A stretch of 64,000 nt of DNA from an uncultured Spirochaetales bacterium (GTDB lineage: Bacteria > UBP6 > UBA1177): assembly GCA_964630905.1 (NCBI GenBank), contig CAZVWR010000002.1, forward strand, positions 23,531 through 87,530, in the 5' to 3' direction. The notes beneath the pieces are model-generated. The model had not been told where the DNA came from. It ran no database searches and saw only the letters and a program-made list of their open reading frames with translations. The translations under genes and the position numbers were made by a program. How positions within the stretch are numbered: position 1 is the first letter of the stretch; every line of letters starts with the position of its first letter. Of the stretch, positions 37,839 to 59,097 are shown one piece after another.

Positions 37839-39220
37839 TGAAACCATACCCGAAATATAAAGATTCTGGAATAGTCTGGTTAGGAAAAATACCGGAACAT
37901 TGGGAAAGTGCAAAAATTAGATCAATTTTATCTCCTATAATAGAAAAAAACAGATCAGATCTTCCGCTATTATCCGTAGTTCGCGAAAAAGGAGTTATTA
38001 AGCGAAATATTGAAAGCAAAGAAGAAAACCACAATTATATTCCAGATGATCTTTCAAATTATAAAGTTGTAAAAAAAGGACAGTTTGCAATGAATAAGAT
38101 GAAAGCATGGCAAGGTTCTTATGGAGTCTCAGCCTTTGATGGAATAGTTAGTCCTGCTTATTTTACCTTTCAAATTGATAGAGTGGAAAGAGAATTTTTT
38201 CATGCTGCAATGAGATCAAAGGCATATGTTCCTTTTTTTACGCAAGCTTCTGATGGAGTGCGAGTTGGTCAATGGGATTTGAACCAGTCAAGAATGGGAG
38301 ATATTCCTTTTTTTATCCCTCCTGAATCCGAACAAACACAAATTGCCCGTTATCTTGACTGGCAGACTTCTAAAATAAACAAGTTCATAAAAAACAAAAA
38401 GAAACTCATTGCATTACTGAAAGAACAGAAGCAGAACATCATCAACGAAGCTGTAACAAAAGGCCTCAACCCCAATGTTAAAATGAAAAACAGCGGTGTT
38501 GAATGGATCGGAGAAATCCCGATGCATTGGGAGGCTCTGTATATAAGGCGTTGCACAAAATTCGTGAAAACCGGTGGAACACCAAAAGGTGCCAACGAAT
38601 CGCATTTCTGCGAGAAAGGTTTTAACTGGTTTACTCCATCTGATTTTAAGGAAGAGGTGTTTCTGAAAAATTCTTATCGTCAGTTATCAGAATTAGGCAA
38701 GAAAGATGTAAAGCTGTTTCCAGCAAATACAGTAATGATGATTGGAATAGGCGGTACGATTGGGAAGGTTTCTATTTCCCCTGACATTTCAAGCTGCAAT
38801 CAACAAATCAATGCGATTTTTACAAATGAGAGAGTTGTTTCAATATATATGACTTTTGCTCTAAGGTGCTTAAAAAGCTTCATTATTGAATGTGGAAAAT
38901 ATACAACGATGCCAATTATAAATCAGGATGAAACAAAGACCTTAAAAATTCCCGTACCACCAATTTCTGAACAGCAAGAAATAGTTGCTTTCATAGAAAA
39001 AGAAACTGCTCTCATCGACAAGACCATCGCCCGCACTGAAAAAGAAATTGAACTGATTCAGGAATATCGCACTCGCCTTGTTTCGGATGTTGTAACCGGT
39101 AAGATTGATGTGCGGGATGTTGAAGTTCCAGATTTTGTAGAAGAAATTGTTGAAATTAATGCAGATGAAGATGAAAACGAAGAAGAATTTATTCAGGCAG
39201 GAGATGAGGGAAATGATTAG
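37838..39220 (+). CDS. hsdS: Type I R-M specificity subunit, two target-recognition domains
   Basis: Duplicated TRD + conserved-helix organisation (…LKEQKQNIINEAVTKGLNP… and …EIELIQEYRTRLVSDVVTGKIDV…); ATG overlaps hsdM stop (TGATG). Confidence 0.85.
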   Translation: MKPYPKYKDSGIVWLGKIPEHWESAKIRSILSPIIEKNRSDLPLLSVVREKGVIKRNIESKEENHNYIPDDLSNYKVVKKGQFAMNKMKAWQGSYGVSAFDGIVSPAYFTFQIDRVEREFFHAAMRSKAYVPFFTQASDGVRVGQWDLNQSRMGDIPFFIPPESEQTQIARYLDWQTSKINKFIKNKKKLIALLKEQKQNIINEAVTKGLNPNVKMKNSGVEWIGEIPMHWEALYIRRCTKFVKTGGTPKGANESHFCEKGFNWFTPSDFKEEVFLKNSYRQLSELGKKDVKLFPANTVMMIGIGGTIGKVSISPDISSCNQQINAIFTNERVVSIYMTFALRCLKSFIIECGKYTTMPIINQDETKTLKIPVPPISEQQEIVAFIEKETALIDKTIARTEKEIELIQEYRTRLVSDVVTGKIDVRDVEVPDFVEEIVEINADEDENEEEFIQAGDEGND

Positions 39221-40106
39221 AGCGTTGTTCGAACGGTTTAGAAAAAATATTCCAACTCCAAAAAGAAGTCGATCAACACTTCACTTGAATTGGCATAATC
39301 TGCCTGATGGTTGTAGATGTATGTATCTTTCAAGTGATTTGTATCCTGAACTTTTTGAATTGCGTTTCCCAGATATTTTTAGAAAAGCTGGAGGAGGGTG
39401 GCGACAAAAAAGTTCAAATACATCTCAAAAATATCTCTGGTTTCCTTCAAAATCTGTAACTGAAGATGATATAAAAAAAGTAAATTGTTGGGGGCGAAAA
39501 TTTGGCCAATTTGTAGTGTTGGGGATTAATAAAAACATTGAAGATTATTTCTCTACCGAAATGGACTTCTGTTTGGCGTTAAGCTTCAACAAAGACAATC
39601 CAAAAGAAAAAGAAAGAACCTTTTATGGAGAAGCAGAATATCAAATAAAATACAAAGAAAAAAACGACCCTTACTTAGGTTATCTTTTTGATGGATTGCA
39701 AGATGCCTATGATTATCTGCCTATTTATAGACCAAAAGAGAATATAATACTTACTACTATTCCTTCCGAAAGAACTGAAAAGCTCCCACACAAACTGTTA
39801 AAAAGTGTTGCAGAGAACAAACATCTGGAATATGTCATTCCATATCTAAACTGTGACAAAAAGAAGTTTAAGGGATTGCCCATATCTGAAAAGATTCCAG
39901 AATGGGATCATGTTTTTTCCAATGACAGAAACATTGAATTAAATAAAAACCTTAGCGGAAAAACAGTAATTATAATAGACGATTTATATCAATCCGGTGC
40001 AACGATGTGGTCATTTGCAAAATATTTAAAAAGCAAAAAAGCAAAAGAAGTCATTGGATTGGTTTGTGTTAAATCTTTAAGGGACACAGATAATACGGAT
40101 GGATGA
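39204..40106 (+). CDS. shosT: Phosphoribosyltransferase (PRTase type I) domain protein, ShosT-like
   Basis: C-terminal VIIIDDLYQSGATMWSFAKYLKSKKAKEVIGLVCV = PRTase PRPP-binding loop. Start overlaps the hsdS stop; an ATG at 39213 is equally possible. Pairing with a downstream DprA-like gene matches the described ShosTA toxin/antitoxin defence pair. Confidence 0.5.
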   Translation: MREMIRALFERFRKNIPTPKRSRSTLHLNWHNLPDGCRCMYLSSDLYPELFELRFPDIFRKAGGGWRQKSSNTSQKYLWFPSKSVTEDDIKKVNCWGRKFGQFVVLGINKNIEDYFSTEMDFCLALSFNKDNPKEKERTFYGEAEYQIKYKEKNDPYLGYLFDGLQDAYDYLPIYRPKENIILTTIPSERTEKLPHKLLKSVAENKHLEYVIPYLNCDKKKFKGLPISEKIPEWDHVFSNDRNIELNKNLSGKTVIIIDDLYQSGATMWSFAKYLKSKKAKEVIGLVCVKSLRDTDNTDG

Positions 40107-40109
40107 TAT

Positions 40110-41096
40110 ATGATTGATGCCAAAGTGCTGCAATTTATTTTAGCAAAGGGCGCCGGCGATGCTGCTTTAAAAAAGTTTCTTGAATATATCAATAAAAATG
40201 GGATCGAAAGTGTTTCAGAATTGTTGAAGACTCCCCAAGAAATCGTTTATAACTTAAATATTAAAGAAGATGTCGCCAGCAACATAATAAATACTGAAAA
40301 TGAGGCAATGATATTAAGCGATAATTTGAAAAAAGATGAAATTACTCTTCTGACAAACATAGACAAAGATTATCCATCAAAAAAATTGAAGGTTTTAGAA
40401 AAAGATGCCTCCCCAGTTTTATTCGTGAAAGGAAATAAAGATTTATTGTCAATGAAGTCAATTGGTTTTTGTGGTTCCAGAAAAGCTTCAGAAAAAGGAA
40501 TAGATATAACACAAAACTGTAGCAAGCAGTTGGTGGAAAAAGATTATTGCATCATAAGTGGATATGCTCATGGAGTTGATATGGCTGCACACATATCGGC
40601 ACTTAAAAATGGAGGAAAAACTATCTTTGTATTAGTGGATGGTATTTTAAGATTTACTGAAAAAAAAGAAATTAAGGAGTATTTATCTAGTTCAAACCAT
40701 TTAATAGTTTCACAATTTCCTCCGAACATAACATGGATCGGGCACAATGCGATGCGAAGAAATTTAACAATAATTGGATTGTCTGATGCGATGATTCTTG
40801 TTGAGTCAGGCATCACTGGCGGAACTTTTGCGGCAGGGGAAGAGACTTTAAAGGTGAAAAGACCATTATTTGTTATAGATTTTGCTAAGCCTGGTCCGTC
40901 TGCTGAAGCAAATCCTTATTTTATAAAAAAAGGTGGAATCTCTATAAGAGGAAAAAAAGGTGTTCCTAATTTAAGCGAATTAATCAAAATAACATCATCA
41001 GAGCCTTCTACTGTTGGAAAAGAAGAAAAAACATTCGGTGAACAACTATCTTTATTCCAATTTGGTGATATTAAAATTGAGGAGAGCGACGAATGA
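40110..41096 (+). CDS. shosA: DprA/Smf-like (SLOG Rossmann fold) protein, ShosA-like
   Basis: GFCGSRKASEKG...IISGYAHGVDMAAHISALKNGGKTIFVLVDGI...RRNLTIIGLSDAMILVESGITGGTFAAGEE matches the DprA Rossmann-domain pattern; 4 nt after the shosT-like stop. Confidence 0.55.
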   Translation: MIDAKVLQFILAKGAGDAALKKFLEYINKNGIESVSELLKTPQEIVYNLNIKEDVASNIINTENEAMILSDNLKKDEITLLTNIDKDYPSKKLKVLEKDASPVLFVKGNKDLLSMKSIGFCGSRKASEKGIDITQNCSKQLVEKDYCIISGYAHGVDMAAHISALKNGGKTIFVLVDGILRFTEKKEIKEYLSSSNHLIVSQFPPNITWIGHNAMRRNLTIIGLSDAMILVESGITGGTFAAGEETLKVKRPLFVIDFAKPGPSAEANPYFIKKGGISIRGKKGVPNLSELIKITSSEPSTVGKEEKTFGEQLSLFQFGDIKIEESDE

Positions 41097-41731
41097 CAGT
41101 TCCCGCTAATCCAAAGATTTATCACATAACTCATGTTGAAAACCTCGCTTCAATTATTTCTGACGGTTGTATCTGGTCTGATGCAAAAACTGTACATAAT
41201 CAAGGAGTTGTCAAAATTGGGATGTCAGAAATCAAGCGGAGAAGGTTGTATGAAAATCAACTCACAAGTCATCCCGGTCTTTATGTCGGGGAGTGTGTTC
41301 CGTTTTATTTCTGTCCGCGATCTATTATGCTCTTCCTGTTTTATATGAACAATCATAAAGATATAACATACAAAGGAGGACAGGAGCCAATCATTCATCT
41401 TGAAGCAGATTTAAAAAAAGTGGTAAATTGGGCTGAACAGAACAACAAAAGGTGGGCTTTCACTCTTTCCAATGCAGGAGCATCCTACTTTGAAGACAGA
41501 AAAAGTCTTGAGAATCTGGATGAACTTGACTGGAATGCCATTAATTCCACAAGCTGGCATGAATGCAGAGAAAAGAAGCAGGCAGAATTTCTCATTGAGG
41601 AAAAATTTCCATGGAGTCTTATTGATAGAATTGGAATATATTCTGAAAATTATTATAATAATGTAATCCGTTCTTTTAATGGAAACAGTCATCGTCCAGT
41701 GGTTGAGATTAAAAGAAGCTGGTATTATTGA
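41093..41731 (+). CDS. darT: DarT-like ssDNA ADP-ribosyltransferase toxin (DUF4433)
   Basis: IYHITHVENLASIISDGCIWS ... YVGECVPFYFCPRSIMLF matches the DUF4433/DarT signature; ATGA overlap with upstream stop. Confidence 0.7.
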   Translation: MTVPANPKIYHITHVENLASIISDGCIWSDAKTVHNQGVVKIGMSEIKRRRLYENQLTSHPGLYVGECVPFYFCPRSIMLFLFYMNNHKDITYKGGQEPIIHLEADLKKVVNWAEQNNKRWAFTLSNAGASYFEDRKSLENLDELDWNAINSTSWHECREKKQAEFLIEEKFPWSLIDRIGIYSENYYNNVIRSFNGNSHRPVVEIKRSWYY

Positions 41732-41739
41732 GAGGAACT

Positions 41740-42795
41740 ATGATGAAATTTACTCAGGGTGATATTTTCACCGCAAACACAGAAGCAATTGTCAATACAG
41801 TGAACTGTGTCGGAGTTATGGGAAGAGGAATCGCTCTTCAGTTTAAAAAAAGATTCCCTGAAAATTTCAAAGAATATGAATCTGCATGCAGTAGAGAAGA
41901 AGTTGTTCCGGGGAAAATGTTCGTTTATGAAACAGGAGCTCTTTTTAATCCGAGAATAATTATTAATTTCCCCACAAAACGACATTGGCGTGGCGAAAGT
42001 AAAATTGAAGACATAGAAAATGGATTGATTGATCTTGTCAGAATTATTCAAGAAAAGAACATTAAATCAATTGCATTGCCGCCTCTTGGATGTGGATTGG
42101 GTGGTTTGAACTGGTCTGATGTGAAAATGCTTATTCAAAAATATCTGATCGCATTAAATGATGTTGAAGTTCTTGTTTTTGAACCTATTGGAGCTCCGGC
42201 TGCCGAAGAAATGGTGAAAAACCGGAAAGTTCCGGAAATGACATCCGGCAGAGCTGCTTTAATTGAACTGGTTGCTCACTATTTAAATGGATTGCTTGAC
42301 CCCATCGTAACACTTCTTGAAGTTCATAAATTAATGTATTTTCTTCAGGCATCAGGAGAAAATCTGAGACTTAATTATACGAAAGGACCTTTCGGACCTT
42401 ATTCTAAAAATCTGAGCCATGTTCTGAATGCTATAGAAGGACATTTGATTTCAGGTTATGCGGATGGAGGCGATAAACCGGACAAACGACTTAAACTGGT
42501 TCCAGGTGCTTATGAAAGTGCATCCGAATTTCTTGAAACGCAGAAAAATACAATAAAAAATCTGGAACGGGTCGCTGATCTTGTGAAAGGATTTGAAACC
42601 CCGTTTGGAATGGAACTCTTATCCACTGTTCATTGGGTGGTAGTTAATGAAAAAGCTGAGTCAAAAGAAGATGTTGTTGCAAAAGTTCATGCATGGGGAG
42701 AAAGAAAAAAACAATTTACGCCGCGGCAGATTTTTATAGCTCTTGATGTCCTTTCAAAAAAGAAATGGGTGGATGTTTCTTCATGGGAAAGCTAA
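41740..42795 (+). CDS. darG: DarG-like macrodomain antitoxin
   Basis: N-terminal macrodomain (GDIFTANTEAIVNTVNCVGVMGRGIALQFKK ... IALPPLGCGLGGL) plus ~200-aa C-terminal domain; overlaps darT stop. Confidence 0.7.
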   Translation: MMKFTQGDIFTANTEAIVNTVNCVGVMGRGIALQFKKRFPENFKEYESACSREEVVPGKMFVYETGALFNPRIIINFPTKRHWRGESKIEDIENGLIDLVRIIQEKNIKSIALPPLGCGLGGLNWSDVKMLIQKYLIALNDVEVLVFEPIGAPAAEEMVKNRKVPEMTSGRAALIELVAHYLNGLLDPIVTLLEVHKLMYFLQASGENLRLNYTKGPFGPYSKNLSHVLNAIEGHLISGYADGGDKPDKRLKLVPGAYESASEFLETQKNTIKNLERVADLVKGFETPFGMELLSTVHWVVVNEKAESKEDVVAKVHAWGERKKQFTPRQIFIALDVLSKKKWVDVSSWES

Positions 42796-45700
42796 ATATA
42801 AAACCAACCGACACAACTGAAGCCGGACTTGAATCTCTCATTGTTAAATCACTGATTGAAGAATCGAAATATGTTGCAGGTGATCCTCGTGATTATGACA
42901 GAACACATGCTGTTGACCTTGTTAAACTGACTGATTTTATTAAATCTACTCAGCCGGAAATTGCCGATTCTCTTTCCCTTGATGCTGACTCTCCGACCCG
43001 GACCCAATTCCTTCACAGGCTTCAGGGTGAAATAGCAAAAAGGGGCGTGATTGATGTTTTGCGTAGAGGATTGAATCACGGACCCCACTCAATAACAGCA
43101 TTTTACGGAACTCCGACAGCAAACAATGAAAAAGCAAAAGAACTGTTTGAGAAGAATATTTTCAGTGTGACCCGTCAGCTCCGTTACAGCTCAAGTGAAA
43201 CACAACTTGCTCTCGATATGGGCGTTTTCATAAATGGATTGCCTGTGGCAACATTTGAGCTGAAAAACAAGCTGACAAAACAGACTGTTGAAGATGCAGT
43301 GCAGCAATATAAGAATGATCGTGACTCCAAAGAACTGCTTTTCCAGTTTGGTCGGTGTATGGTTCATTTTGCGCTAGATGATCATGAAGTTGAAATGTGT
43401 GCTCACTTAAAAGGAAAAGACTCATGGTTTCTGCCATTTAATAAAGGTTTTAATGATGGAGCAGGAAATCCGCCCAATCCGGATGGCCTGGCAACAGATT
43501 ATTTATGGAAAGAAATACTAACAAAGCCGAGACTGACAGATATTATTGAGAATTATGCTCAGATCGTTGAAGAAAAAGACCCGAAAACCGGAAAGAAAAA
43601 ATATAGGCAGATATTTCCACGGTATCATCAGTTAAAAGCAGTTCGAAAGCTGCTCTCAGACGCACAAATCAACGGAGCCGGGAAACGATATCTCATTCAA
43701 CATTCTGCCGGAAGCGGCAAGTCAAATTCAATCGCCTGGCTTGCTCATCAACTCGTCGGGCTTGAAAAAAACAAAAAACCTGTATTTGACTCCATAATTG
43801 TTGTAACAGATCGAAGGGTTCTTGATAAGCAGATCAAAGACACAATTAAATCATTTGCTCAGGTTTCCAACATCATAGGTCATGCAGAAAGATCCGGAGA
43901 CTTGAAACGGTTTATCAGTGAAGGCAAGCAGATAATAATCACAACAGTCCAGAAATTTCCTTTCATAATTAATGAGATCGGAGATGAGCACAGAAATAAT
44001 AAGTTTGCAATAATTATTGATGAAGCTCACTCAAGCCAGGGAGGAAAAGCTGCAACGAAAATGAATATTGCTTTAGCATCTACATCAGAAGTGAGGGAAA
44101 ACTGCGAAAAATATGATGATTTGCTGATGGTTGCTGAAAGAAGTCCTGAATATACTGGCGAGTGTGAAGATGTTGACTTGGAAGATCAAATCAATTTTAT
44201 TATGGAAAGCAGAAAGATGCTTAATAATGCAAGCTATTTTGCATTCACTGCAACTCCGAAAAACAAGACTCTTGAAATATTCGGAGAACCTTTTCCGCAA
44301 CCTGACGGCAAGATTAAACATAAGCCTTTTGACAGTTATACAATGAAGCAGGCAATACAGGAAGGATTTATAAGGGATGTGCTTAAAAATTACACTCCAG
44401 TGGAAAGTTATTATAAAATCACAAAAAAAATTGAGGACGACCCATATTTTGATTCTAAAAGAGCCCAGAAAAAACTCAGAAAGTTTGTAGAATCGAACAA
44501 ATATGCAATTAAAGAAAAAGCAGAGATAATAATTGATCATTTCCAGACTCAGGTGATTTCCCGTCGTAAAATCGGGGGTGAAGCCCGTGCAATTGTTGTA
44601 ACAAGCGGGATAATGCGTGCAATTGAATATTACTATGAAATAAGCGCCTACATAAAAGAAAAAAAACTGCAGTACAAAGCCATCGTTGCATTTTCAGGGG
44701 AACATGAATACGGTGGGGGAAAAGTCACGGAATCTACAATTAATGGATTTCCAAGTAATCAGATAGAAGATAAAATTATTGAGGATCCATACCGTATTCT
44801 GGTTGTTGCCGATAAATATCTTACTGGCTATGACGAACCATTGATGCACACAATGTATGTTGATAAGCCGCTTGAAGGAATTAAAGCTGTTCAGACACTT
44901 TCCCGGCTTAATAGAGCCCATCCTAAAAAACACGATACTTTCGTTCTGGATTTTTATAATGACACAGTAACCATTCAGAGTGCGTTCGCAGATTATTACA
45001 GAACAACCATATTGAGTGAAGAGACCGACCCCAATAAGCTTCACGATCTCAAATCTGACATTGATCTTTATCAAGTTTATTCATTTGAGCAGATTGATGA
45101 TCTTGTGGAAAAATATCTGTCAGGAGCTGAAAGAGATTCTATTGATCCTATCCTTGACACATGTGTTGCTGTTTATAATAGTGAACTTGATGAAAATGGA
45201 CAGGTTGATTTTAAAGGTAAGGCAAAGGCATTTGTAAGAACATACGGGTTTCTTTCTGCACTTCTTCCGTATAACAACGCTGAATGGGAAAAACTCTCGA
45301 TATTTCTTAATTTTCTAATACCCAAACTTCCTGCCCCGAAAGAAGAAGATCTTTCAAAAGGTATTTTGGAAACTATTGATCTTGAAAGTTACAGAGCTGA
45401 AATGAAAGCGACAATAAATATCTCTCTGCCTGATGAAGATGCTGAACTTGGAGCTGTGCCTACCACAGGAGGTGGTCGTAAACCCGAGCCGGAGCTTGAT
45501 CAACTCAGCAACATATTGAAAACTTTTAATGATCTTTTTGGGAATATCGAGTGGAAAGATGATGATAAGATCAGGAAAGTCATTGCTGAAGAAATTCCCG
45601 AAATGGTTGCCGCTGACACAGCATATCAGAATGCAATGAAAAATTCTGATAAACAGAACGCCAGAATAGAGCATGACAAGGCCCTCCAAAGAGTAATTCT

Positions 45701-45827
45701 AACGCTTATTGCCGATCACACGGAGCTTTATAAACAGTTCAGCGACAATCCATCTTTCAATAAATGGTTGGGAGACACAATATTTAACGCAACTTATTCA
45801 GAGAATGAAAATAATATAAACAGGTGA
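42783..45827 (+). CDS. hsdR: Type I restriction enzyme R subunit
   Basis: Walker A HSAGSGKSNS, DEAH box IIIDEAHSSQ, helicase motifs, HsdR N-terminal nuclease region; start overlaps darG stop. Confidence 0.9.
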   Translation: MGKLNIKPTDTTEAGLESLIVKSLIEESKYVAGDPRDYDRTHAVDLVKLTDFIKSTQPEIADSLSLDADSPTRTQFLHRLQGEIAKRGVIDVLRRGLNHGPHSITAFYGTPTANNEKAKELFEKNIFSVTRQLRYSSSETQLALDMGVFINGLPVATFELKNKLTKQTVEDAVQQYKNDRDSKELLFQFGRCMVHFALDDHEVEMCAHLKGKDSWFLPFNKGFNDGAGNPPNPDGLATDYLWKEILTKPRLTDIIENYAQIVEEKDPKTGKKKYRQIFPRYHQLKAVRKLLSDAQINGAGKRYLIQHSAGSGKSNSIAWLAHQLVGLEKNKKPVFDSIIVVTDRRVLDKQIKDTIKSFAQVSNIIGHAERSGDLKRFISEGKQIIITTVQKFPFIINEIGDEHRNNKFAIIIDEAHSSQGGKAATKMNIALASTSEVRENCEKYDDLLMVAERSPEYTGECEDVDLEDQINFIMESRKMLNNASYFAFTATPKNKTLEIFGEPFPQPDGKIKHKPFDSYTMKQAIQEGFIRDVLKNYTPVESYYKITKKIEDDPYFDSKRAQKKLRKFVESNKYAIKEKAEIIIDHFQTQVISRRKIGGEARAIVVTSGIMRAIEYYYEISAYIKEKKLQYKAIVAFSGEHEYGGGKVTESTINGFPSNQIEDKIIEDPYRILVVADKYLTGYDEPLMHTMYVDKPLEGIKAVQTLSRLNRAHPKKHDTFVLDFYNDTVTIQSAFADYYRTTILSEETDPNKLHDLKSDIDLYQVYSFEQIDDLVEKYLSGAERDSIDPILDTCVAVYNSELDENGQVDFKGKAKAFVRTYGFLSALLPYNNAEWEKLSIFLNFLIPKLPAPKEEDLSKGILETIDLESYRAEMKATINISLPDEDAELGAVPTTGGGRKPEPELDQLSNILKTFNDLFGNIEWKDDDKIRKVIAEEIPEMVAADTAYQNAMKNSDKQNARIEHDKALQRVILTLIADHTELYKQFSDNPSFNKWLGDTIFNATYSENENNINR

Positions 45828-45834
45828 TAGTACT

Positions 45835-46689
45835 TTGAAAACAGGACATAGATCTACACTTATAATTTTAATCATCGCAACCGTAGTTATCATTATAATA
45901 GGGTTTGGATATCCTTTTTTTACAAACGAAACCATGAACATGTCAAGTCTTTCAAGTTGGATTTCAGCTATAATATCCAGTACTGCTTTCATATGGCTTA
46001 TATTCGGTTATTTTTTGCAGATGAAATCTTTAAATATACAAAGTATAGAAGTCGAACGGATGGCAAAGTTTGCAGCTTTGCAACAGATTCAAAATGCATT
46101 TGGCTTATTAAATGAAAAGGTAAAAAATTCAGGATATAAAGACGTTCATACTTTATCTGTGGAATTTCCGATGACTATGGCATTCACCATTAAAAATGTT
46201 GTTGAAAATAAAACCGATGAAAAACTGAAAATGGAGTGGATGTCTAAATGGACAAATTTTAAAAGTCTGTGTGATGAATTTATTGGCACTTTCGCAATGA
46301 TGTTAAAGCTTTATGATGAAGCACCTGAAAAAGAGATGGTTCAAAAAAAGAAACTGACTACCATAGAGAGTTCAATGAAAACCCTGAACATTGATGCAAA
46401 AACAATAAAGGATTTTGAGTCCATCGTGGACTATAAAAATGCATGGTATATTAAGACGAATTTCAAAAGAGCCCAAGAAATTCCAGTATTAGCTTTTTAT
46501 TCAAAGGCGGCTGGGATGTTGGCCGAGAGTATGATTCGTTTTGAACCAGGCATTGATATAGTCGAACTTGAGATACTTGAGGACAGTGAAAAAACCATTC
46601 CTGGTTGTGTAAAGAGCGAATATTTAGAAAAATTAAGAAAAAAGGTTGGCGATAGGGAAAAAGAAAGAGAGTCCAAAAAGAAGGTCTAA
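45835..46689 (+). CDS. Hypothetical membrane protein (2 N-terminal TM helices + ~220-aa helical cytoplasmic domain)
   Basis: LIILIIATVVIIIIGF and ISSTAFIWLIFGYFL hydrophobic helices; TTG start 8 nt after hsdR. Confidence 0.45.
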   Translation: MKTGHRSTLIILIIATVVIIIIGFGYPFFTNETMNMSSLSSWISAIISSTAFIWLIFGYFLQMKSLNIQSIEVERMAKFAALQQIQNAFGLLNEKVKNSGYKDVHTLSVEFPMTMAFTIKNVVENKTDEKLKMEWMSKWTNFKSLCDEFIGTFAMMLKLYDEAPEKEMVQKKKLTTIESSMKTLNIDAKTIKDFESIVDYKNAWYIKTNFKRAQEIPVLAFYSKAAGMLAESMIRFEPGIDIVELEILEDSEKTIPGCVKSEYLEKLRKKVGDREKERESKKKV

Positions 46690-46697
46690 GTTTAAAT

Positions 46698-47414
46698 ATG
46701 GTCAAGAAAAAGTTAAACCATAGTGTTTTATTCAGTCAGTCAGGTATTAATTATTCAACGACGGTTGAAGCTGCATTAGCAAAAACCATAATTCATGCGC
46801 TCGAACAGTACAAAATAAAATGGTCTTTGGGAAACAAGGTGTTATATGCAATGTGTAAAAATCACCCTGGACATAAAACTGAAGAGGAAATTCTGGCAAA
46901 AATATGGCTTATCGGAAGATCTTACGCTGCTGCCCTTGAGAGAAGAAAGAACAAAGAAAAAGAGTCAAGTAACGACGATTTTTACAATAATGCGGCAGAT
47001 CAGATCCAACAATCTGAAATAGATAAATGGATTGAGGAGAGTCGAAACAACAATGACCCTCAGGTTCACATTAAAACACACAAAAAGGTAACAACTCTTT
47101 TTGAAACGATAACTGGGCTCGAAAAACGGTCTCTTGCATCAAAATACCTTCACTTCCACCTGCCGAAAAAGTTTTTCATATATGATTCCAGGGCTGCTGG
47201 GGCAATGCCGGCTCTTTTACGGGAACTCGGCATTAAAAAGGTCACTGTCACCCATAAGGGCGAGGAATACGATGAAAAATATGCAGCGTTTTACGAGAAA
47301 TGTTTTGTCGCCCAGAAAGCAATAAAAGAAAAGTTCAACATAAATTGCAGTTGCAGAGATCTTGATACTGTGTTGATACATTTTGATAAGATCAAGAAAA
47401 CATTAAATATTTAA
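46698..47414 (+). CDS. Hypothetical protein (238 aa)
   Basis: ORF 9 nt after the preceding gene; no motif recognised. Confidence 0.4.
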   Translation: MVKKKLNHSVLFSQSGINYSTTVEAALAKTIIHALEQYKIKWSLGNKVLYAMCKNHPGHKTEEEILAKIWLIGRSYAAALERRKNKEKESSNDDFYNNAADQIQQSEIDKWIEESRNNNDPQVHIKTHKKVTTLFETITGLEKRSLASKYLHFHLPKKFFIYDSRAAGAMPALLRELGIKKVTVTHKGEEYDEKYAAFYEKCFVAQKAIKEKFNINCSCRDLDTVLIHFDKIKKTLNI

Positions 47415-47425
47415 GGGTGGTAATT

Positions 47426-48355
47426 ATGAGTAATAAAATAAAAAATGTTAAAAAGGTTCTTTTCATAAAACTTGGTGAGAAAGGTAAGTTTGAGGAGGAC
47501 TGTATTGAGAAAAGCAACACACTGAAACTTGATTACACAGAAATAGATCATAATGCTTGCACTAACGGTAACTGGGATAAGGTTAGAGAACATTACTTAA
47601 TTAAAGGTAATAAGCCGCAAGTAGCGACAGGTCATGTAAACCAAATAAAGCGTTTTTATGAAGAAGATAAGAAAACTCTCTGGATAACCTTTTATTCAAA
47701 CAAGCTATGGTGGTGTTTTTCAACTCCGAAGATCACAAAACTTCATGACAGCACCAAAACCCGTCCAGTAATCGGTAAGTGGTCTGACAAAGACATAAAT
47801 GGGAAAAAACTTTCTTTCGATAAGCTAAGCGGGAAGTTGCTGAAAACCCAAGGGTTCAGAGGTACTATTTGTGAGGTTCCGGAAAAAGAATATGTTCTGG
47901 CTAAAATTAATAGTGAAAAAAACCAAGATGTTTTGGATGTTGAAAAAGCTGTTTCAGTCCTGCAATCAAAGTTGACCAAGTTAATTCAAACTCTTCATTG
48001 GAAAGATTTTGAAACCCTTGTTGATCTTATATTCAGACAAGCAGGATGGCAAAGAGTTAGTGAGGTAGGAAAAACACAGAAAACATTAGATCTTGATCTT
48101 TTTGCGCCGGTAACTGGTGAAAGAGCACTGGTGCAGATAAAAGCACAGTCAAAATTTTCTGAGTTTGAAGAGTATAAGAAGGACTTTGAAAACATGAGCA
48201 GTTTCAACAAATTCTTTTATGTTGTACACACTTCTGACGAAAAACTTAAAAGTTATAAAAATGTCGGGAATATAAATATATGGCTCATCGAAAAAGTGGC
48301 AGAGCTGACAATTTCTGCCGGGTTAGTAGACTGGGTTATAAAGAAAACTTCCTGA
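47426..48355 (+). CDS. Protein with C-terminal Mrr-cat type PD-(D/E)xK restriction-endonuclease domain
   Basis: WKDFETLVDLIFRQAGWQRV ... TLDLDLF ... ALVQIKAQS (D...QxK core) as in Mrr N-terminal catalytic domains; unknown ~180-aa N-domain. Confidence 0.5.
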   Translation: MSNKIKNVKKVLFIKLGEKGKFEEDCIEKSNTLKLDYTEIDHNACTNGNWDKVREHYLIKGNKPQVATGHVNQIKRFYEEDKKTLWITFYSNKLWWCFSTPKITKLHDSTKTRPVIGKWSDKDINGKKLSFDKLSGKLLKTQGFRGTICEVPEKEYVLAKINSEKNQDVLDVEKAVSVLQSKLTKLIQTLHWKDFETLVDLIFRQAGWQRVSEVGKTQKTLDLDLFAPVTGERALVQIKAQSKFSEFEEYKKDFENMSSFNKFFYVVHTSDEKLKSYKNVGNINIWLIEKVAELTISAGLVDWVIKKTS

Positions 48356-49318: not shown

Positions 49319-49903
49319 TTAACTTTTAAGCCACAATTCTACCTCAGAAAGCGTTTCCATGGTTCCGTCCTTGCCCGCTGCTGTTACAAGAGAACCGGTA
49401 CTTAAAGAATATACCGAGTACCCTCGGTTTTCTTTTAGTAAATAGAACCCTGCTTTTTTTAAGCGATCGTCCATTATTGCTTCCTCTTCGTCTAGGTCAA
49501 TCTGAAATGCTCTATATTCCTCTTCAAGAATATCTTTCTGTTGTTCTACATCAGACAGTGTTAAAGTTGCAGTTTTTGAAGAAGATTCCCAACCATATAA
49601 AGGACTGTCGTCGCTGTCGCAGATATAGTATAGCCCTTTTTTCTTGATCAAATCATAACCCATTGATTGCAAATTCCGTCGCAGCAATCTTTCTGTTTCT
49701 TCTATATCGTTTTCAATACTTTCGACTTCTTTTTCAAGATCGTCAAGGCTGAACATTGCACACTTTGATGTTGGATCCCATCCATATTCCGGAACCCCGC
49801 GATCATTCATAATAAAGAAATTACTTTTGATTTTTGAAACAGAGAATCCTCCTCCCGCAATTCTTTCATTGAGAGCACTAATTTTACTCATGATATCCTC
49901 CAA
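49319..49903 (-). CDS. Hypothetical protein with internal duplication (two ~80-aa homologous halves)
   Basis: GWDPTSKCAMFSLDDLEKEV... vs GWESSSKTATLTLSDVEQQK... Confidence 0.4.
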   Translation of the reverse strand: MEDIMSKISALNERIAGGGFSVSKIKSNFFIMNDRGVPEYGWDPTSKCAMFSLDDLEKEVESIENDIEETERLLRRNLQSMGYDLIKKKGLYYICDSDDSPLYGWESSSKTATLTLSDVEQQKDILEEEYRAFQIDLDEEEAIMDDRLKKAGFYLLKENRGYSVYSLSTGSLVTAAGKDGTMETLSEVELWLKS

Positions 49904-50180
49904 AAAAATAAATCTACAAAAATTCCATCAACACAGTCCGTTTTTCTTGATTGTTTTTCAAAAAACATTTTACCTCCAATACAAAAATTAATGAACAACA
50001 TACCAACACCATTGTAGGTATATTTAAAAATCAGAGAGCATACTATAAAAAAGCTCTGCATCAGATATGATGATTTTTTTCATCATACAGTTTTGCCGTA
50101 CATCGAGATATCGTGATAAGTCGTATGAAGTCTTGTGATGCCCTGCCGTGCCTTTTTTCCATTCTATCGGGCTGAATCAA

Positions 50181-50276
50181 AAAATGACTCAATAAGAATC
50201 GAAAAATCCTCAAAGAGAAAGCTGCATAAATCCTCAAGGGCGAAGCAGCGTTAATCCTCAATAGGAAAAACTGTGT
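50181..50276 (+). repeat. Four iteron-like units at exact 24-bp period (core AATCCTCAA.G.GAA) 3' of the recombinase gene
   Basis: aatcctcaa at 50205, 50229, 50253 plus a degenerate unit at 50181. Confidence 0.7.
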
Positions 50277-50370
50277 AAATATAACAAAACGCATCTGTTT
50301 TGTCAATAAGACGAAAAAAAAAACCAAAAAAAAGGAGCCCATTACAGACTCCCTTTTAATACAAATTTCG

Positions 50371-50916
50371 CTATAGCGAAAACTTCTCCAGCGACTCATC
50401 AATGGCATCCTGAGTTATGCCGATATACCTCAGTGTGACTGCGGGTGATGAGTGGTTGAAGATCTTCTGGAGCATGGCGATGTCCTTGCTCATGCGGTAG
50501 TAATGAAACCCGAAGGTCTTTCTCATTGTGTGTGTTCCTATCCCTTCAAGTCCTACTTCCCTGGCGGCACTGTTGAGGATCCTCCATGCCGAAACTCTGG
50601 TGAGCGGTCGCTTTCCCCCCTGCCTTGAGAGGAACAGAAACTCATCATCATCCCTGCCCCGGACATAGCAGTCGATCTCCCGCTGAAGGTTGTCATTGAT
50701 CTTGAACTTCTTCTCCTTGCCGGTCTTCTGTTCACGGATAACGATATGGCTCCGCTCCCGGACATCCTCCACCCTGAGCCGGAGCAGATCCCCGACCCTG
50801 ATGCCGATGTTTATCCCCGACACAAAAAGGAAATAGTTCCTGAAGGACTGCTCCCGCAGTATCTTCTTCATCTGCTCGATCTTTTCCTGATCCCTTATCG
50901 GATTTACACTGTTCAT
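50371..50916 (-). CDS. Small tyrosine recombinase (181 aa)
   Basis: Catalytic-domain motifs GTHTMRKTFG (H..R) and VTLRYIG (Y). Its size resembles FimB/FimE and other small inversion recombinases. Confidence 0.75.
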   Translation of the reverse strand: MNSVNPIRDQEKIEQMKKILREQSFRNYFLFVSGINIGIRVGDLLRLRVEDVRERSHIVIREQKTGKEKKFKINDNLQREIDCYVRGRDDDEFLFLSRQGGKRPLTRVSAWRILNSAAREVGLEGIGTHTMRKTFGFHYYRMSKDIAMLQKIFNHSSPAVTLRYIGITQDAIDESLEKFSL

Positions 50917-54497: not shown

Positions 54498-57400
54498 TTA
54501 ATTACCAAGATTTATCATAATATGAAACATTTCAGCATTTTCACCATGTAATGTTTTTGCTATCTTGAAGTTTCTCACATCATCAAATTCATTAGTGATA
54601 TCAATAAAACCTCGTTTCTTATCTATCAAAAAAGTGGAAGGATAGTCAATCCCAAGAACATGTGATTCATATTTATTCCAGTTTTTATCAAAATTTTCAG
54701 ACTTTTTAAGGTAATAAATTATAACATAATACCTGTTTAAATATTCAATATATTTTTCACACTTTAAAATATGCTTCTGATTATATTCTTCTGTTCCAAA
54801 AACAAGAGCTTCTATAAGTGCAAAATCTTTTCCTCTTGAACTTAATGCAAAATCAGCATTACCCGCATCCTTCCCACCGTCAGATTTTCCAGTTCTTGGT
54901 TGATCATTTATATTCCAACCCCAAATAGCAAACCTTGGCAACAAGACTGCTTGAATAAAATCATTATAATGGTTTTCCAATATTTTCTGAGTTGCAACTT
55001 TCTTTTTCAATAAAGTTTGAAGAGCTAATATCAACTCATTTAAAATAAAAACTTCCAGCTCTTTTTTATTATTAATACATTCGGGAGTTATTCTTGGAAT
55101 ATTCTTTGGTTCTTGATTAATAATGTCCTTAAAAGAGTCTTTTAATATCGGCAATCTTTCCAATTTTGAATTCTGAATTAAATCATTAACATTTTTAGAT
55201 ACATCTTTATCATGTTCCCTTATATAACACTCTGATTTTTTTATATAATTGGACGCGAACTCATACATTTCCCTTTTCTTATAAAACTCATAAATTACCG
55301 GTATCATATCTTCATCATACAAAAATCGTTTTGATAACCGATTTATTGTTTGGTCAAAACTTACAGAATCTTCAATTGAAACATAGTAAAAAACCTTGTT
55401 ACTATCTACTTCTTCTGAAAAACCTACAAGCTTTTTCTTTTCCTCTGTATCATTAAGATTTTTAATGAAATTGTCCCATTCAGCATTAGCTTTGGCAAAC
55501 ATTTCTTTTGAAAATTCTTTTTCATTTGCTTCCAATGTTTGAGCACAATATAAGTATAGAGAATATTTTACATCTTGAGGATTTTTCTTAGACAAAGATT
55601 TCAAAATTTTAACTGCTTCAGGATAGTTTTTATCTTTATACATTTTATAAATAGCTACATAAAATGTCTTAAGATCTTCATTGGAAAATTTGTTGGGACC
55701 TCCCTCCGTTTTTGGAATTTCAAGACCATAAAGAGTTTCCCAATCTTTTTCTTTAAAAGCCAAAAGTAATTTTACCTCAAACATGAAAGAGTTAAAACGC
55801 GCATCAACAGTTTTTCTTTTTATATGATGTTTCTGAACTTCTTCAATAAGTGACTTTGCAAAAGCATAATGCTGTTCTGAATTAACCGCCTCTACTAAAG
55901 CATGTTCAAGTTCTGTAATCCAGTGTGCCGAATTTATAAAATCGTCAATTTTTATTTCCTTTATTCTTTTTGAAATCACATCTTTTACTTCTTTAGAATC
56001 TGTGCTGTTAATTGCTTTTAGCATTCTTTCAAAATTGACACTTTTTAAAAAGAATTCTTTAAAAAATTCGATTTGATTCCCTTTGTTAAAATAATTCAAA
56101 GACTTATATAGCAATTTTATTAATGGGGTGTGGTAAATGTTCTTCTCACTTAAATGGAATTTTTCATTAAAAACATCAATTCTTTTATTAGATAGCTCAT
56201 CACGAGAATAATTAAATGAGTAATATTTTATTAGGCTTTCCAATTCATTTGTAGTCTTTGTAACGGGCAAACAATGTGATTCATAAGCATCACGGCTTTG
56301 ATTTATTGATGTGTGAGCAACTAATAAAGTTTTCAAATAAGTCTTAATCTTTTCATGCTGTTCTAAATTTTCTTCATCATATTCACTTTCGTCTGAATTA
56401 AAACTCAGAGAACTAATAAAATCAGAGTCTATTTTTTTGAGAAAATCATACTTTTGAAAATGTAAAAACAAACATCCCCAGTCAATTATCTCATATCCAA
56501 ACTCTCCTGTACCTCTTCTTCTGACCTTTTCTGTTTTTGTTAATCCTGAGGAACAATCTATTACAGATATTTCTTTTGCACAGTAGAACCTTATTATGTA
56601 GTCCTTCAACGATGCAACTAACTCTTTTAAGAATTTTTCTATTTCGTCTTTCTTTTCAGACTCTTCCAAACCAGAAATATAGCTGTCATAAAAATTCAAA
56701 AGCTTTATTGAAAAATCAACAACGCCTGAATCTAGGTTTAATAATCCTGTATGATTTGGACTTGGATTATCTAATTTATTGATAATATATTTAGAAAGAC
56801 TTTGGATAGAATCATTTACTAACCCATGGTTGAAGTTACTGCCAACTATTCTCTTATTTTCAATAAGATATAAAGCTTTTTGATATCTTTTTTTATAAAA
56901 ATCATGCCGATTATTATCAAACCTACCCGCCGATCTTCCATTAAAAGCTTTTTCTGCAGCATCAAGCAAAATTCTAGCGAACATATTTCCAATTTCTTTG
57001 TCTCTAGAATTAGAAATGCTTATCTTATCCAGTATAAACTCAAACATTTCAAGCCAAATTTGACTCTTTATTTCGTATTGTTCCGTCATATCGTTGTGAT
57101 TGACTTTTTTTAAGATATTGTGATTTATTACAACTTCATCGACCATTCTTAACACAACTGGAACTGTATCTGGATCATATAATAAATACGGCAGGATCTC
57201 AGGATATTTTTCAGGAACTGTCTTAAATAAAGCCCAAATTAGAAAAGGCCTCGAAATGTCTTTAAAAATGGAAATAATTTCATCATATTTACTAAAATTA
57301 TTTGATTCATTCAAAATTATCAATCTTAAAAAAGTGTGATATATATATCGAGGCCCCTCATACAAACAACAGCAATCTCTGTTTGGCCATTCAAATATTT

Positions 57401-58319
57401 CCAGATTTTTAAGCACAGCATCAATATTCTCATCTTTTAATCTAAACATTTTATCATTTGAATAACTAACTTTTATTTCATATCTTTCAAAACAATCAAA
57501 AACATTCTTTGTTGATTCATATTCTGAATTTATAAGATCTTCTTCATCAATGAGATAATTATGTGCCGACTTGCAAATTGCCAAACATTCTGACTCCGGC
57601 AAATAATTTCTCATATCGCCCACATATAATCCAGAAATTCTAATATATTCAAAAAATTGATTAAACTTTTCATCGTATGATTTTTTGTTTTTAATCAAAT
57701 GCCACAAAATTGAACCAATTTCATTTTTGAATAAATTTAATAAGTGGTGATGCCGTTTATTCCAAACATAGTCTTTTTCATCTTTTTCCATCCAAATAAG
57801 TTTTTCTTTTTTGAAATATTCCACACTCAAACCTGAGTTTTCTTCAATCAATATTTTCTCTATTACCTCTTTTGAAACGAAAACTCTATCTTCTTGAAAA
57901 TACTGTTCATTATATAAATTTAAACATTTTAATAGATTTAATTTTTTTTCAGAGATGTCATTGTTTTCTTTATCTTTTAAAACTTTCTTAACATAAAGCA
58001 ATACTTGACGAGGAATTAATGCTTGACCAGTTAAAATTCTGATCCAACCTTCTTGCTTAAAATCTTCTAAAATTAATGCAGTGCAATTCTCTTCATTATA
58101 CTTTTCAATTATTTCTAAGAATTTATTTTTACTTTTATCTGAAGATTTTAATTCTAAAATAATTCTTGCAAGAATGTATGAAAGCCTGTGTTTAAGGTCA
58201 TCTTTCCTTATAATCCAATCATTATGGCGCCCATTTCTGCTTCTGTCTAAATTATAAAACTTTAATCTTTGGCTTAATGATTCCAGTTTTATTGAATCTT
58301 GTGGCTTTATAAATGGCAT
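54498..58319 (-). CDS. Very large (1273 aa) AT-rich orphan protein, no recognised catalytic motif
   Basis: Continuous ORF. Base composition is markedly more AT-rich than flanking genes. C-terminal segment TGKSDGGKDAGNADFALSSRGKDFALIEALVF is weakly PD-(D/E)xK / Mrr-like. Confidence 0.45.
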   Translation of the reverse strand: MPFIKPQDSIKLESLSQRLKFYNLDRSRNGRHNDWIIRKDDLKHRLSYILARIILELKSSDKSKNKFLEIIEKYNEENCTALILEDFKQEGWIRILTGQALIPRQVLLYVKKVLKDKENNDISEKKLNLLKCLNLYNEQYFQEDRVFVSKEVIEKILIEENSGLSVEYFKKEKLIWMEKDEKDYVWNKRHHHLLNLFKNEIGSILWHLIKNKKSYDEKFNQFFEYIRISGLYVGDMRNYLPESECLAICKSAHNYLIDEEDLINSEYESTKNVFDCFERYEIKVSYSNDKMFRLKDENIDAVLKNLEIFEWPNRDCCCLYEGPRYIYHTFLRLIILNESNNFSKYDEIISIFKDISRPFLIWALFKTVPEKYPEILPYLLYDPDTVPVVLRMVDEVVINHNILKKVNHNDMTEQYEIKSQIWLEMFEFILDKISISNSRDKEIGNMFARILLDAAEKAFNGRSAGRFDNNRHDFYKKRYQKALYLIENKRIVGSNFNHGLVNDSIQSLSKYIINKLDNPSPNHTGLLNLDSGVVDFSIKLLNFYDSYISGLEESEKKDEIEKFLKELVASLKDYIIRFYCAKEISVIDCSSGLTKTEKVRRRGTGEFGYEIIDWGCLFLHFQKYDFLKKIDSDFISSLSFNSDESEYDEENLEQHEKIKTYLKTLLVAHTSINQSRDAYESHCLPVTKTTNELESLIKYYSFNYSRDELSNKRIDVFNEKFHLSEKNIYHTPLIKLLYKSLNYFNKGNQIEFFKEFFLKSVNFERMLKAINSTDSKEVKDVISKRIKEIKIDDFINSAHWITELEHALVEAVNSEQHYAFAKSLIEEVQKHHIKRKTVDARFNSFMFEVKLLLAFKEKDWETLYGLEIPKTEGGPNKFSNEDLKTFYVAIYKMYKDKNYPEAVKILKSLSKKNPQDVKYSLYLYCAQTLEANEKEFSKEMFAKANAEWDNFIKNLNDTEEKKKLVGFSEEVDSNKVFYYVSIEDSVSFDQTINRLSKRFLYDEDMIPVIYEFYKKREMYEFASNYIKKSECYIREHDKDVSKNVNDLIQNSKLERLPILKDSFKDIINQEPKNIPRITPECINNKKELEVFILNELILALQTLLKKKVATQKILENHYNDFIQAVLLPRFAIWGWNINDQPRTGKSDGGKDAGNADFALSSRGKDFALIEALVFGTEEYNQKHILKCEKYIEYLNRYYVIIYYLKKSENFDKNWNKYESHVLGIDYPSTFLIDKKRGFIDITNEFDDVRNFKIAKTLHGENAEMFHIMINLGN

Positions 58320-58485: not shown

Positions 58486-59094
58486 ATGAAAGAGATCGCG
58501 AGTACTATTGCAGAGAGGGGTGCTGGTTACTGTTCCAATCCGGATCTGCTGGAATTCATTTTCGGGAAGGTCCGTCCGGATCACCGTCATGCTATCGAGA
58601 GGATAATAAATTCAGGTGAGGATCCTGAGAACACGAAGCTTCCGGGAAAGATGAAGCTGAAGCTGAAGGCGTTTTATGAGCTGGGTGCCCGGATGTTCGA
58701 GAAGGGTAAGATCCGGCTGGGGAAGAGTTCCGATGTGGCGGATCTGTGCAGGGATATGAGGACTCTGAAGCAGGAGCATTTTGTAACGCTCACGGTGAAC
58801 GGCAACAACTGCCTGATCTCAAAGCGGGTCATCTTCATCGGGACTCTCAACAAGTCAATCGTCCATCCGAGAGAGGTGTTCGCTGCGGCCATTTCAGATC
58901 ATGCGGCGGGGATCGTCCTGGTGCATAACCATCCAAGCGGCAACCCCGAGCCGAGTACTGAGGACATCATCATGACCCGTAAGCTTGCAGAAGCGGGAAA
59001 TATCCTGGGGATAGAGGTCATTGATCATGTGATCATAGCGGATTCGAATCATTACAGTTTTCAAGGTAACGGACTTATTAAGAGGGAGGTTTAA
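58486..59094 (+). CDS. radC: RadC-family JAB/MPN domain protein
   Basis: HNHPSGNPEPSTEDI JAMM-like motif; 202 aa. Confidence 0.8.
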   Translation: MKEIASTIAERGAGYCSNPDLLEFIFGKVRPDHRHAIERIINSGEDPENTKLPGKMKLKLKAFYELGARMFEKGKIRLGKSSDVADLCRDMRTLKQEHFVTLTVNGNNCLISKRVIFIGTLNKSIVHPREVFAAAISDHAAGIVLVHNHPSGNPEPSTEDIIMTRKLAEAGNILGIEVIDHVIIADSNHYSFQGNGLIKREV

Positions 59095-59097
59095 ACC

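Follow-up and report, generated by a model that had tools for sequence, protein, structure and literature searches.

The 64,000-nucleotide window analysed here (positions 23,531 to 87,530 of contig CAZVWR010000002.1, assembly GCA_964630905.1, from an uncultured Spirochaetales bacterium) contains a Type I restriction-modification (R-M) operon with DarTG embedded between hsdS and hsdR, together with a PsyrTA/ShosTA-like gene pair. Three further genes, termed gA, gB and gC in their order 3' of hsdR, form the tail of this operon. They are probably separate cargo genes that share the transcription of the operon and are carried on a Type I R-M scaffold for mobile defence cassettes, rather than the single membrane-sensor/effector module envisaged in the initial annotation: the triplet was found outside the window only in three near-identical operons (loci L017, L018 and L099), and elsewhere the three families occur independently. 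We propose that the region would represent the variable 3' tail of the operon, and that the phosphoribosyltransferase (PRTase)-DprA pair, DarTG and the tail genes would be its cassettes.

Results

Recurrence and exchange of the tail genes

As first annotated, the three co-directional genes are tightly packed after hsdR, with gaps of 7 nt between hsdR and gA, 8 nt between gA and gB, and 2 or 11 nt between gB and gC, according to whether gC begins at the GTG at 47417, from which its open reading frame (ORF) is open, or at the ATG at 47426, which gene callers and homologues use. Each has full-length homologues, so they are real genes rather than chance ORFs. No terminator-like hairpin was found in the intergenic gaps from hsdR to the gC stop (a weak match at 47196-47212 is internal to gB), and the clearest one 3' of gC is at 49413-49428. 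Since the matches of the promoter and terminator scan were no more numerous than in shuffled sequences, we infer co-transcription of the tail genes with hsdR from their spacing only.

Recurrence of the tail genes was surveyed in 80 loci that carry a gB homologue in genomes of representative species (Verrucomicrobiota, Nitrospirota, Pseudomonadota, Bacteroidota, Bacillota, Planctomycetota and the candidate phyla radiation, CPR) and in 80 metagenome loci with a gC homologue. All three operons that share the triplet with the window have an hsdR 99-100% identical to that of the window; L017 and L018 are identical, and the proteins of L099 are 98.9% (HsdR), 91.9% (gA), 91.9% (gB) and 90.3% (gC) identical to those of the window. 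A gC gene was near gB in one of the 80 gB genome loci (L019, the same contig as L005, gB 91%), and gA was found in 0 of the 80, a search with the family hidden Markov model (HMM) included. In the gC metagenome loci, gA and gB were near gC in 1 of 80, which is again L099 (same operon, gC 90%). The triplet is therefore absent from all the remaining loci of both surveys, 79 with gB and 79 with gC, and clustering of the neighbours gave no recurrent partner for either gC or gB. Recurrence in the defence islands of other genomes, the check by which the proposed module was to stand or fall, was largely not observed.

Comparison of related operons points to exchange at both ends of the tail. In L005 the tail reads DUF4145-gB (91%)-gC (92%), with a DUF4145 gene in the place of gA, while in L006 it reads hsdR (96%)-gA (90%)-gB (78%, frameshifted), and the place of gC is taken by a 161-aa gene unrelated to it. 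The PRTase-DprA pair (39147-41096) is missing from L099, which is otherwise 96-99% identical, and hence the pair is a cassette indel between hsdS and darT. At the nucleotide level the window and L099 are 98-99.7% identical in hsdR and DarG and ∼94% identical across gA, gB and gC; the identity steps from ∼99% to ∼91-94% close to the hsdR stop (45600-45900), which is likely a recombination boundary, and dips to 82% at the start of darT (41072-41371). From the swaps in L005 and L006, the losses in L099 and this identity step, the operon is seen to be a mosaic with cassette-like gain and loss.

The 161-aa protein of L006 was considered as a GIY-YIG nuclease from a motif seen by eye, and this was dropped when Pfam gave no match. 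A family of ∼150-160-aa proteins without a Pfam match lies directly 3' of gB, in the place of gC, in three loci (Table 1).

gC is an Mrr-type nuclease with a conserved N-domain

By its motif and predicted fold gC is an Mrr-type nuclease. Pfam Mrr_cat matches residues 191-246 with 27.3 bits (cut-off 21) and is matched by 20 of 20 divergent gC homologues. Residues E196, D200, D222, Q237 and K239, which include the D...QxK motif, are invariant in an alignment spanning 38-90% identity. The AlphaFold2 (AF2) model, built from a shallow alignment (∼65% identity), is confident at residues 167-309, and the fold matches of this C-terminal part are EcoT38I, MspJI, Bax1, Cap4 and the Rpb5 N-domain. Residues 1-185 gave no match in Pfam, NCBIfam or the PDB, with neither an Mrr_N winged helix nor an SRA-like reader detected, and the N-terminal 165 residues are as conserved as the C-terminal half. 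The description of the third gene in the initial annotation, an Mrr-type core behind an unknown N-domain, is borne out by these matches.

The gC family comprises more than 1,179 clusters with ∼65% identity over the full 308 aa and a mean column identity of 72%. It is a stand-alone single-gene family, with no obligate partner, found in defence islands. One identical gC protein (P0140) is present on 389 contigs in at least six settings, among them a position flanked by two IS110 transposases, positions 3' of SIR2-HerA, of McrBC and of a DUF4145 gene, and one 5' of a helix-turn-helix (HTH) gene and a large methylase cluster. Relatives with 37-49% identity were found on 116 plasmids, 101 of them from Klebsiella, and none were found in phages. 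The HMM of PDC-S02, a single-gene candidate in PADLOC, matches the gC of the window weakly and in part (E = 2e-5, ∼22 bits, profile positions 58-218 of 324) and matches 11 of the 20 divergent homologues, also weakly (best 1.5e-6).

Two further settings of gC were noted. In L009 (4577-8688), P0140 is flanked on both sides by genes for a 452-aa IS110-family transposase and could be mobilisable as a composite element. Downstream of SIR2-HerA in L015 and L016 (6001-8053) stand gC, a 67-aa gene and then another gene of 308 aa, which has neither detectable similarity to gC nor a Pfam match.

gB belongs to a widespread family with a candidate glycosylase-like fold

Homologues of gB form ∼1,940 clusters of full-length proteins that are distributed patchily over most bacterial phyla. 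The initial annotation found no recognisable motif in the second gene, and this holds for the local family libraries, in which gB has no match; many of its homologues, however, are marked with PF27257 (HI_0787_N), a match called 'weak' for P0003 and P0005, and gB is provisionally assigned to this family through them. No functional annotation for PF27257 was found. The invariant residues of gB (N46, H59, K68, R74, E81-R82-R83, D109, H128, R144-S145, K149, H152, H154, D163, R165, D192, R220, D223) are dense and polar, suggesting an enzyme or a nucleic-acid binder. Hydrophobic windows of the transmembrane (TM) type (Kyte-Doolittle >1.6) were found neither in gB nor in gC.

The AF2 model of gB is all-alpha and confident, with a pLDDT (predicted local distance difference test) of 87.5. 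A Foldseek search of this model against the PDB returned the Ogg2-type 8-oxoguanine glycosylases 3knt and 3n0u at the top, with near full-length matches (probability 0.91-0.92, TM-score 0.45-0.52), and the helix-hairpin-helix (HhH)-GPD superfamily makes up ∼10 of the top 50 PDB matches, with hOGG1, EndoIII, MutY, an AlkA-like enzyme and DUF2419 lower in the list. The gB segment 'LASKYLHFHLPKKFFIYDSR' aligns without gaps with 'EASHFLRNVGYDDVAIIDRH' of MjOgg (PDB sequence). In this register A131-S132 of MjOgg corresponds to A147-S148 of gB, F134-L135 to Y150-L151, and the catalytic D147 to D163, which is invariant in 36 gB-family sequences and lies 15 residues after S148, the same spacing as between S132 and D147 in MjOgg. 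The weak fold match and the motif spacing suggest that gB may be a stand-alone antiviral HhH-type glycosylase, the likeliest mechanism for this protein although one to which we give well short of an even chance. Of the remote-homology and structure searches called for at the outset, those with predicted models thus yielded a nuclease fold for gC and a weak Ogg2-like match for gB, whereas PDB profile searches gave nothing usable for any of the three proteins.

Defence proteins are frequent among the immediate neighbours of gB and include MADS, PD-T4-1, PifA, IetA, DrmD, AbiU, BrxH, SoFic and UzuA. In L190 (1-7282), a Type III-like operon (an N6_N4 methylase and a 984-aa helicase) has a tail made up, in this order, of PDDEXK_1, a gB homologue, a Macro-domain protein and an FtsK-like ATPase. 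The defence setting seen in the initial annotation is upheld both by the R-M, DarTG and PsyrTA/ShosTA-like genes of the operon itself and by the relatives of gB and gC that stand among defence genes elsewhere. Separately, gB-family domains were found fused to N-terminal extensions of ∼290 aa (L045, 6128-7615) and ∼115 aa (L034, 1109-2053), neither with a Pfam match, which are possible 'Rosetta-stone' clues to the partners of gB.

The neighbours of gB raise the alternative that gB and an adjacent nuclease form a two-gene module in which the nuclease has been non-orthologously replaced, with gC filling the place here and gA as unrelated cargo. In the closer gB subclade (identity of 50% or more), all inspected contexts have a nuclease-type gene no more than two genes away: gC itself, with Mrr_cat, in the window, L099 and L005, an unrelated 342-aa Mrr_cat protein in L001, DUF2779 (presumably also of the PD-(D/E)xK fold) directly upstream of gB in L004 and L077, and PDDEXK_1 directly upstream, at the tail of an R-M operon, in L190. 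Moreover, a serine at the position of the catalytic lysine suggests a monofunctional glycosylase, which would leave the cutting of abasic sites to a partner. However, nuclease families are absent among the Pfam families matched by at least two of the 142 immediate neighbours of gB, and 55 of its 67 close same-strand partners are singletons, the recurrent ones including argininosuccinate lyase, thiolase and an ABC ATPase. In addition, gB is missing from 79 of the 80 gC loci and nucleases are common in defence islands, so that their adjacency to gB may be coincidence. We consider such a module unlikely. An HMM of the gC nuclease domain was tried as a detector of Mrr-like neighbours of gB and was rejected as too insensitive, having missed the Mrr_cat protein of L001.

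A broader reading joins these two ideas and seems rather doubtful to us. PF27257 would be an antiviral clade of HhH-type glycosylases that lacks the lysine and the GxG hairpin and often passes abasic DNA on to a neighbouring PD-(D/E)xK nuclease that can be exchanged (gC here; PDDEXK_1, DUF2779 or another Mrr_cat protein elsewhere), such that gB and gC would be a working pair and the N-domain of gC a new reader of DNA lesions or modified bases.

gA is a rare membrane protein

The first gene was annotated as a two-helix membrane anchor, and Kyte-Doolittle windows above 1.6 support two TM segments, at approximately residues 3-31 and 39-63. Searches of family libraries with gA gave nothing that passed the cut-offs, with weak sub-threshold matches such as DUF4212 (19.3 bits, cut-off 30), and no catalytic signature was found. 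Two homologues were retrieved by word index and 72 representatives of similar length by exhaustive HMMER searching. gA is thus predicted to be a rare two-TM protein. The contexts of its family are mixed: its members lie after hsdR (in this lineage only), a T5orf172-ResIII helicase, a DUF4062 protein or a Laminin_G surface protein, or have only uninformative neighbours. A 51% identical relative in L007 follows a superfamily 2 (SF2) helicase-nuclease (T5orf172 and ResIII).

The position of gA could also be explained if gA, and perhaps gB or gC, were Type I accessory factors that tune HsdR or fix its location, for instance through a membrane anchor. gA is directly 3' of hsdR in the window, L099 and L006, and its relative in L007 follows an enzyme with T5orf172 and ResIII domains; the Type I R-M/DarTG island of enteropathogenic Escherichia coli (EPEC) likewise carries a tail gene, encoding an M48 peptidase, and a gB homologue stands at the tail of the Type III-like operon in L190. 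The three hsdR-linked cases of gA, however, represent one lineage, the other gA relatives follow DUF4062, a Laminin_G surface protein or nothing recognisable, and gB and gC occur overwhelmingly without an adjoining R-M operon. To this explanation we attach only a small probability.

The 220-aa gene that comes after the gA relative in L007 was considered as a distant gB, which would have implied a deep gA-gB pair, and was rejected, given that it shares only a 17-residue SKxLHF...D motif with gB (hhalign probability 5.8%). Secreted or lipoprotein-like ORFs with long (D/G)(T/S)GN(T/S) repeats were also observed, in the window (34644-35540, minus strand) and near gA homologues in L007 (4201-5007) and L179 (1944-3074). 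The repeat proteins near gA homologues on other contigs suggest related source organisms; these contigs belong to metagenome-assembled genomes (MAGs) from sludge or digesters.

Operon layout and mobile surroundings

The genes of the operon, the conserved ORF that follows it and the small protein family found in place of gC are listed in Table 1. The true start of the PRTase gene is probably near 39213, and the gene is called as 297 aa in L017. The 179-aa ORF 3' of gC is 90% identical to the ORF that follows gC in L005 and 64% identical to the last ORF of L006; it is absent from L099, and otherwise forms a conserved flank of the variable tail. Its phrog_8 match (E = 0.058) is weak, as is the hint of a possible HTH or transcription regulator.

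Table 1. Features of the operon and its tail. Coordinates are window positions unless another locus is named.
Feature	Position	Strand	Evidence and remarks
hsdM, Type I R-M methylase subunit, 666 aa	35838-37838	+	NPPY methylase motif; assigned from its place in one operon with hsdS and hsdR, which it opens
hsdS, specificity subunit, 461 aa	37835-39220	+	45% identical to Methylase_S protein of L006
PRTase-domain protein, ShosT/PsyrT-like (weak)	39147-40106	+	Pfam Pribosyltran 5.6e-7; PADLOC ShosT 3e-7, PsyrT 3e-6
DprA-like protein, PsyrA/ShosA-like antitoxin partner	40110-41096	+	Pfam DNA_processg_A 4e-42; PADLOC PsyrA 7.6e-58, ShosA 6.3e-47
DarT, single-stranded DNA thymidine ADP-ribosyltransferase toxin	41093-41731	+	Pfam DarT 5.1e-62; PADLOC DarT 2.2e-63
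DarG, macrodomain antitoxin	41728-42795	+	Pfam Macro 5.7e-26; PADLOC DarG 2.4e-137
hsdR, Type I restriction subunit, 1020 aa	42765-45827	+	Pfam HSDR_N, ResIII, SWI2_SNF2, T1R_D3-like; PADLOC REase_I 2.7e-45
gA, 284 aa, TTG start, two predicted N-terminal TM helices	45835-46689	+	Hydropathy; rare family
gB, 238 aa, ATG start, all-alpha; candidate HhH/Ogg2-like fold	46698-47414	+	Homologues with PF27257; predicted model
gC, 309 aa, N-domain (∼1-165) and C-terminal Mrr_cat PD-(D/E)xK domain	47426-48355	+	Pfam, homologues, model
Small ORF 3' of gC, 179 aa	48440-48979	+	Likelier start ATG 48507 behind AGGAGG; ∼85-150 nt after gC
Bidirectional terminator-like hairpin, probable end of transcription unit	49413-49428	.	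Consensus match
Small protein family 3' of gB	L006 9605-10090
Small protein family 3' of gB	L026 7579-8040
Small protein family 3' of gB	L021 5701-6429

Several features lie downstream of the operon. A 181-aa ORF (50371-50916, minus strand) consists of a Phage_integrase catalytic domain only (3.6e-23) and is overlapped by an adjacent 115-aa ORF; together they span 50061-50916, 2 kb from the end of the operon, and look like a truncated or split tyrosine recombinase. Further on, a 1,273-aa ORF without a Pfam match (54498-58319, minus strand) lies in a stretch with a GC content of 27-31%, compared with ∼40% elsewhere, which may be recently acquired DNA. It is followed at 58486-60324 by a RadC-like JAB protein and a divergent DNA polymerase III beta-clamp-like protein (408 aa), a pairing typical of integrative elements. 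The recombinase remnant, the RadC/beta-clamp pair and the low-GC ORF are consistent with a mobile, variable region.

Discussion

We propose that the tail of this Type I R-M operon carries three genes that would act separately. gC would work in the manner of Type IV restriction enzymes, its N-domain, the presumed recognition or sensor part, reading DNA as foreign and the Mrr-type PD-(D/E)xK catalytic domain fused to it making the cut. On phage DNA, gB would flip out a non-canonical base and remove it by means of the invariant Asp163, leaving abasic sites that would block replication or be cut by other nucleases, and gA would be a rare two-TM cargo protein, placed behind hsdR in this lineage only. 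A function in defence is probable for the gB and gC families.

A number of observations weigh against this assignment of separate roles. In the window and L099 the genes have descended together as a single block, at equal divergence, and their tight spacing would also permit translational coupling; functional cooperation specific to this lineage is compatible with both. The N-domain of gC has a pLDDT below 50 in the model, making its sensor role a guess, and in a published test one PDC-S02 representative failed to protect against T4, T5 or T7. Many gB loci adjoin housekeeping genes. The fold matches of gB are individually non-significant (E ∼0.3, TM-score ∼0.5), and HhH-GPD, OGG and AGOG models match 0 of 36 gB-family members at E values up to 10. 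A PDB profile search with gB returned no glycosylase, and an attempt to relate gB to endonuclease III (Nth) of E. coli gave no relation (hhalign probability 0.1). The GxG hairpin of HhH proteins is absent, with G140-L-E-K-R-S in gB at the position of G-I-G-Y-K-E in MjOgg, and the catalytic lysine of Ogg2 (K129) is replaced by the invariant S145, the nearby K143 being two residues upstream. Monofunctional HhH-GPD members such as MutY likewise lack the catalytic lysine.

The block inheritance could instead reflect a lineage-specific three-gene system, recently assembled from existing parts, in which gA senses or executes, gB acts as an adaptor and gC cleaves. Such a system would account for the short gaps with no terminator-like site between the genes, for the co-inheritance of all three at the same level of divergence (∼94%) between the window and L099, and for the occurrence of gA with gB in L006 and of gB with gC in L005. 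Yet the triplet is limited to one lineage (hsdR 96-100% identical), both end genes are replaceable (DUF4145 for gA, the 161-aa gene for gC), and all three families mostly occur without each other, and hence we regard a three-gene system as quite unlikely.

A function outside defence would fit the housekeeping neighbours of gB, the presence of DUF2419 among its fold matches, the integrase fragment 2 kb downstream of the operon and the lack of protection by the PDC-S02 representative. gB would then serve in repair or nucleoside salvage (the fold is shared with Qng1/DUF2419), gC would be an orphan or selfish nuclease and gA a membrane protein with a housekeeping role, all hitch-hiking in a recombination hot spot by the integrase remnant. 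This has a very slim chance in our view, given the patchy distribution of gB across phyla and its frequent defence neighbours, together with contexts of gC that consist almost exclusively of defence or mobile-element genes.

Taken as a set of independent cargo genes, the tail shows clearly how a Type I R-M operon can host defence cassettes that are swapped in and out (PRTase-DprA, DarTG and the tail genes), and cautions that tight operon packing is no proof of a single system. Two large, unstudied families are flagged as single-gene defence candidates, namely the ∼308-aa Mrr-type nuclease with a novel N-domain and PF27257, with its candidate glycosylase-like fold. If the glycosylase reading of PF27257 is true, the theme of antiviral glycosylases would extend to a widespread family that sequence searches fail to connect with known glycosylases.

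Like PDC-S02, gC occurs as a single gene in defence islands, and its weak, partial match to the profile falls on part of the N-domain and the start of the nuclease. It differs in forming its own tightly conserved family of ∼308 aa, and PDC-S02 is itself unvalidated. Like Mrr and MspJI-like Type IV enzymes, gC has an Mrr_cat domain with the D...QxK motif and combines N-terminal recognition (a predicted role) with a C-terminal nuclease in a single polypeptide. Unlike them, it has no detected Mrr_N winged helix or SRA-like reader, and its dependence on modification is putative.

The fold closest to the predicted gB is that of Ogg2 (3knt, 3n0u), with which it shares the invariant Asp 15 residues after the A-S pair, as in MjOgg. 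Dag1-17 are single-gene, sequence-orphan HhH glycosylases that are antiviral and defend against 7-deazaguanine phages (Getz et al., bioRxiv 10.1101/2025.10.29.685425). gB is likewise small, unannotated, single-gene, patchily distributed and often found among defence genes, and no gB accessions were found among the locus tags in the supplement of that work. Dag1 and Ogg2 carry the catalytic lysine, whereas gB has the invariant serine at this position.

For the operon as a whole, the nearest counterpart is the RRDM island of EPEC (RptR - Type I R-M - DarTG2 - M48), a functional defence island on mobile DNA (PMC12255303). RptR, which belongs to that island, was not identified at the operon of the window. 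The EPEC island ends in the M48 peptidase gene, whereas the operon of the window ends in gA-gB-gC and has the PRTase-DprA pair embedded as well. Both nevertheless share the order hsdM-hsdS-darT-darG-hsdR and an extra gene or genes at the tail.

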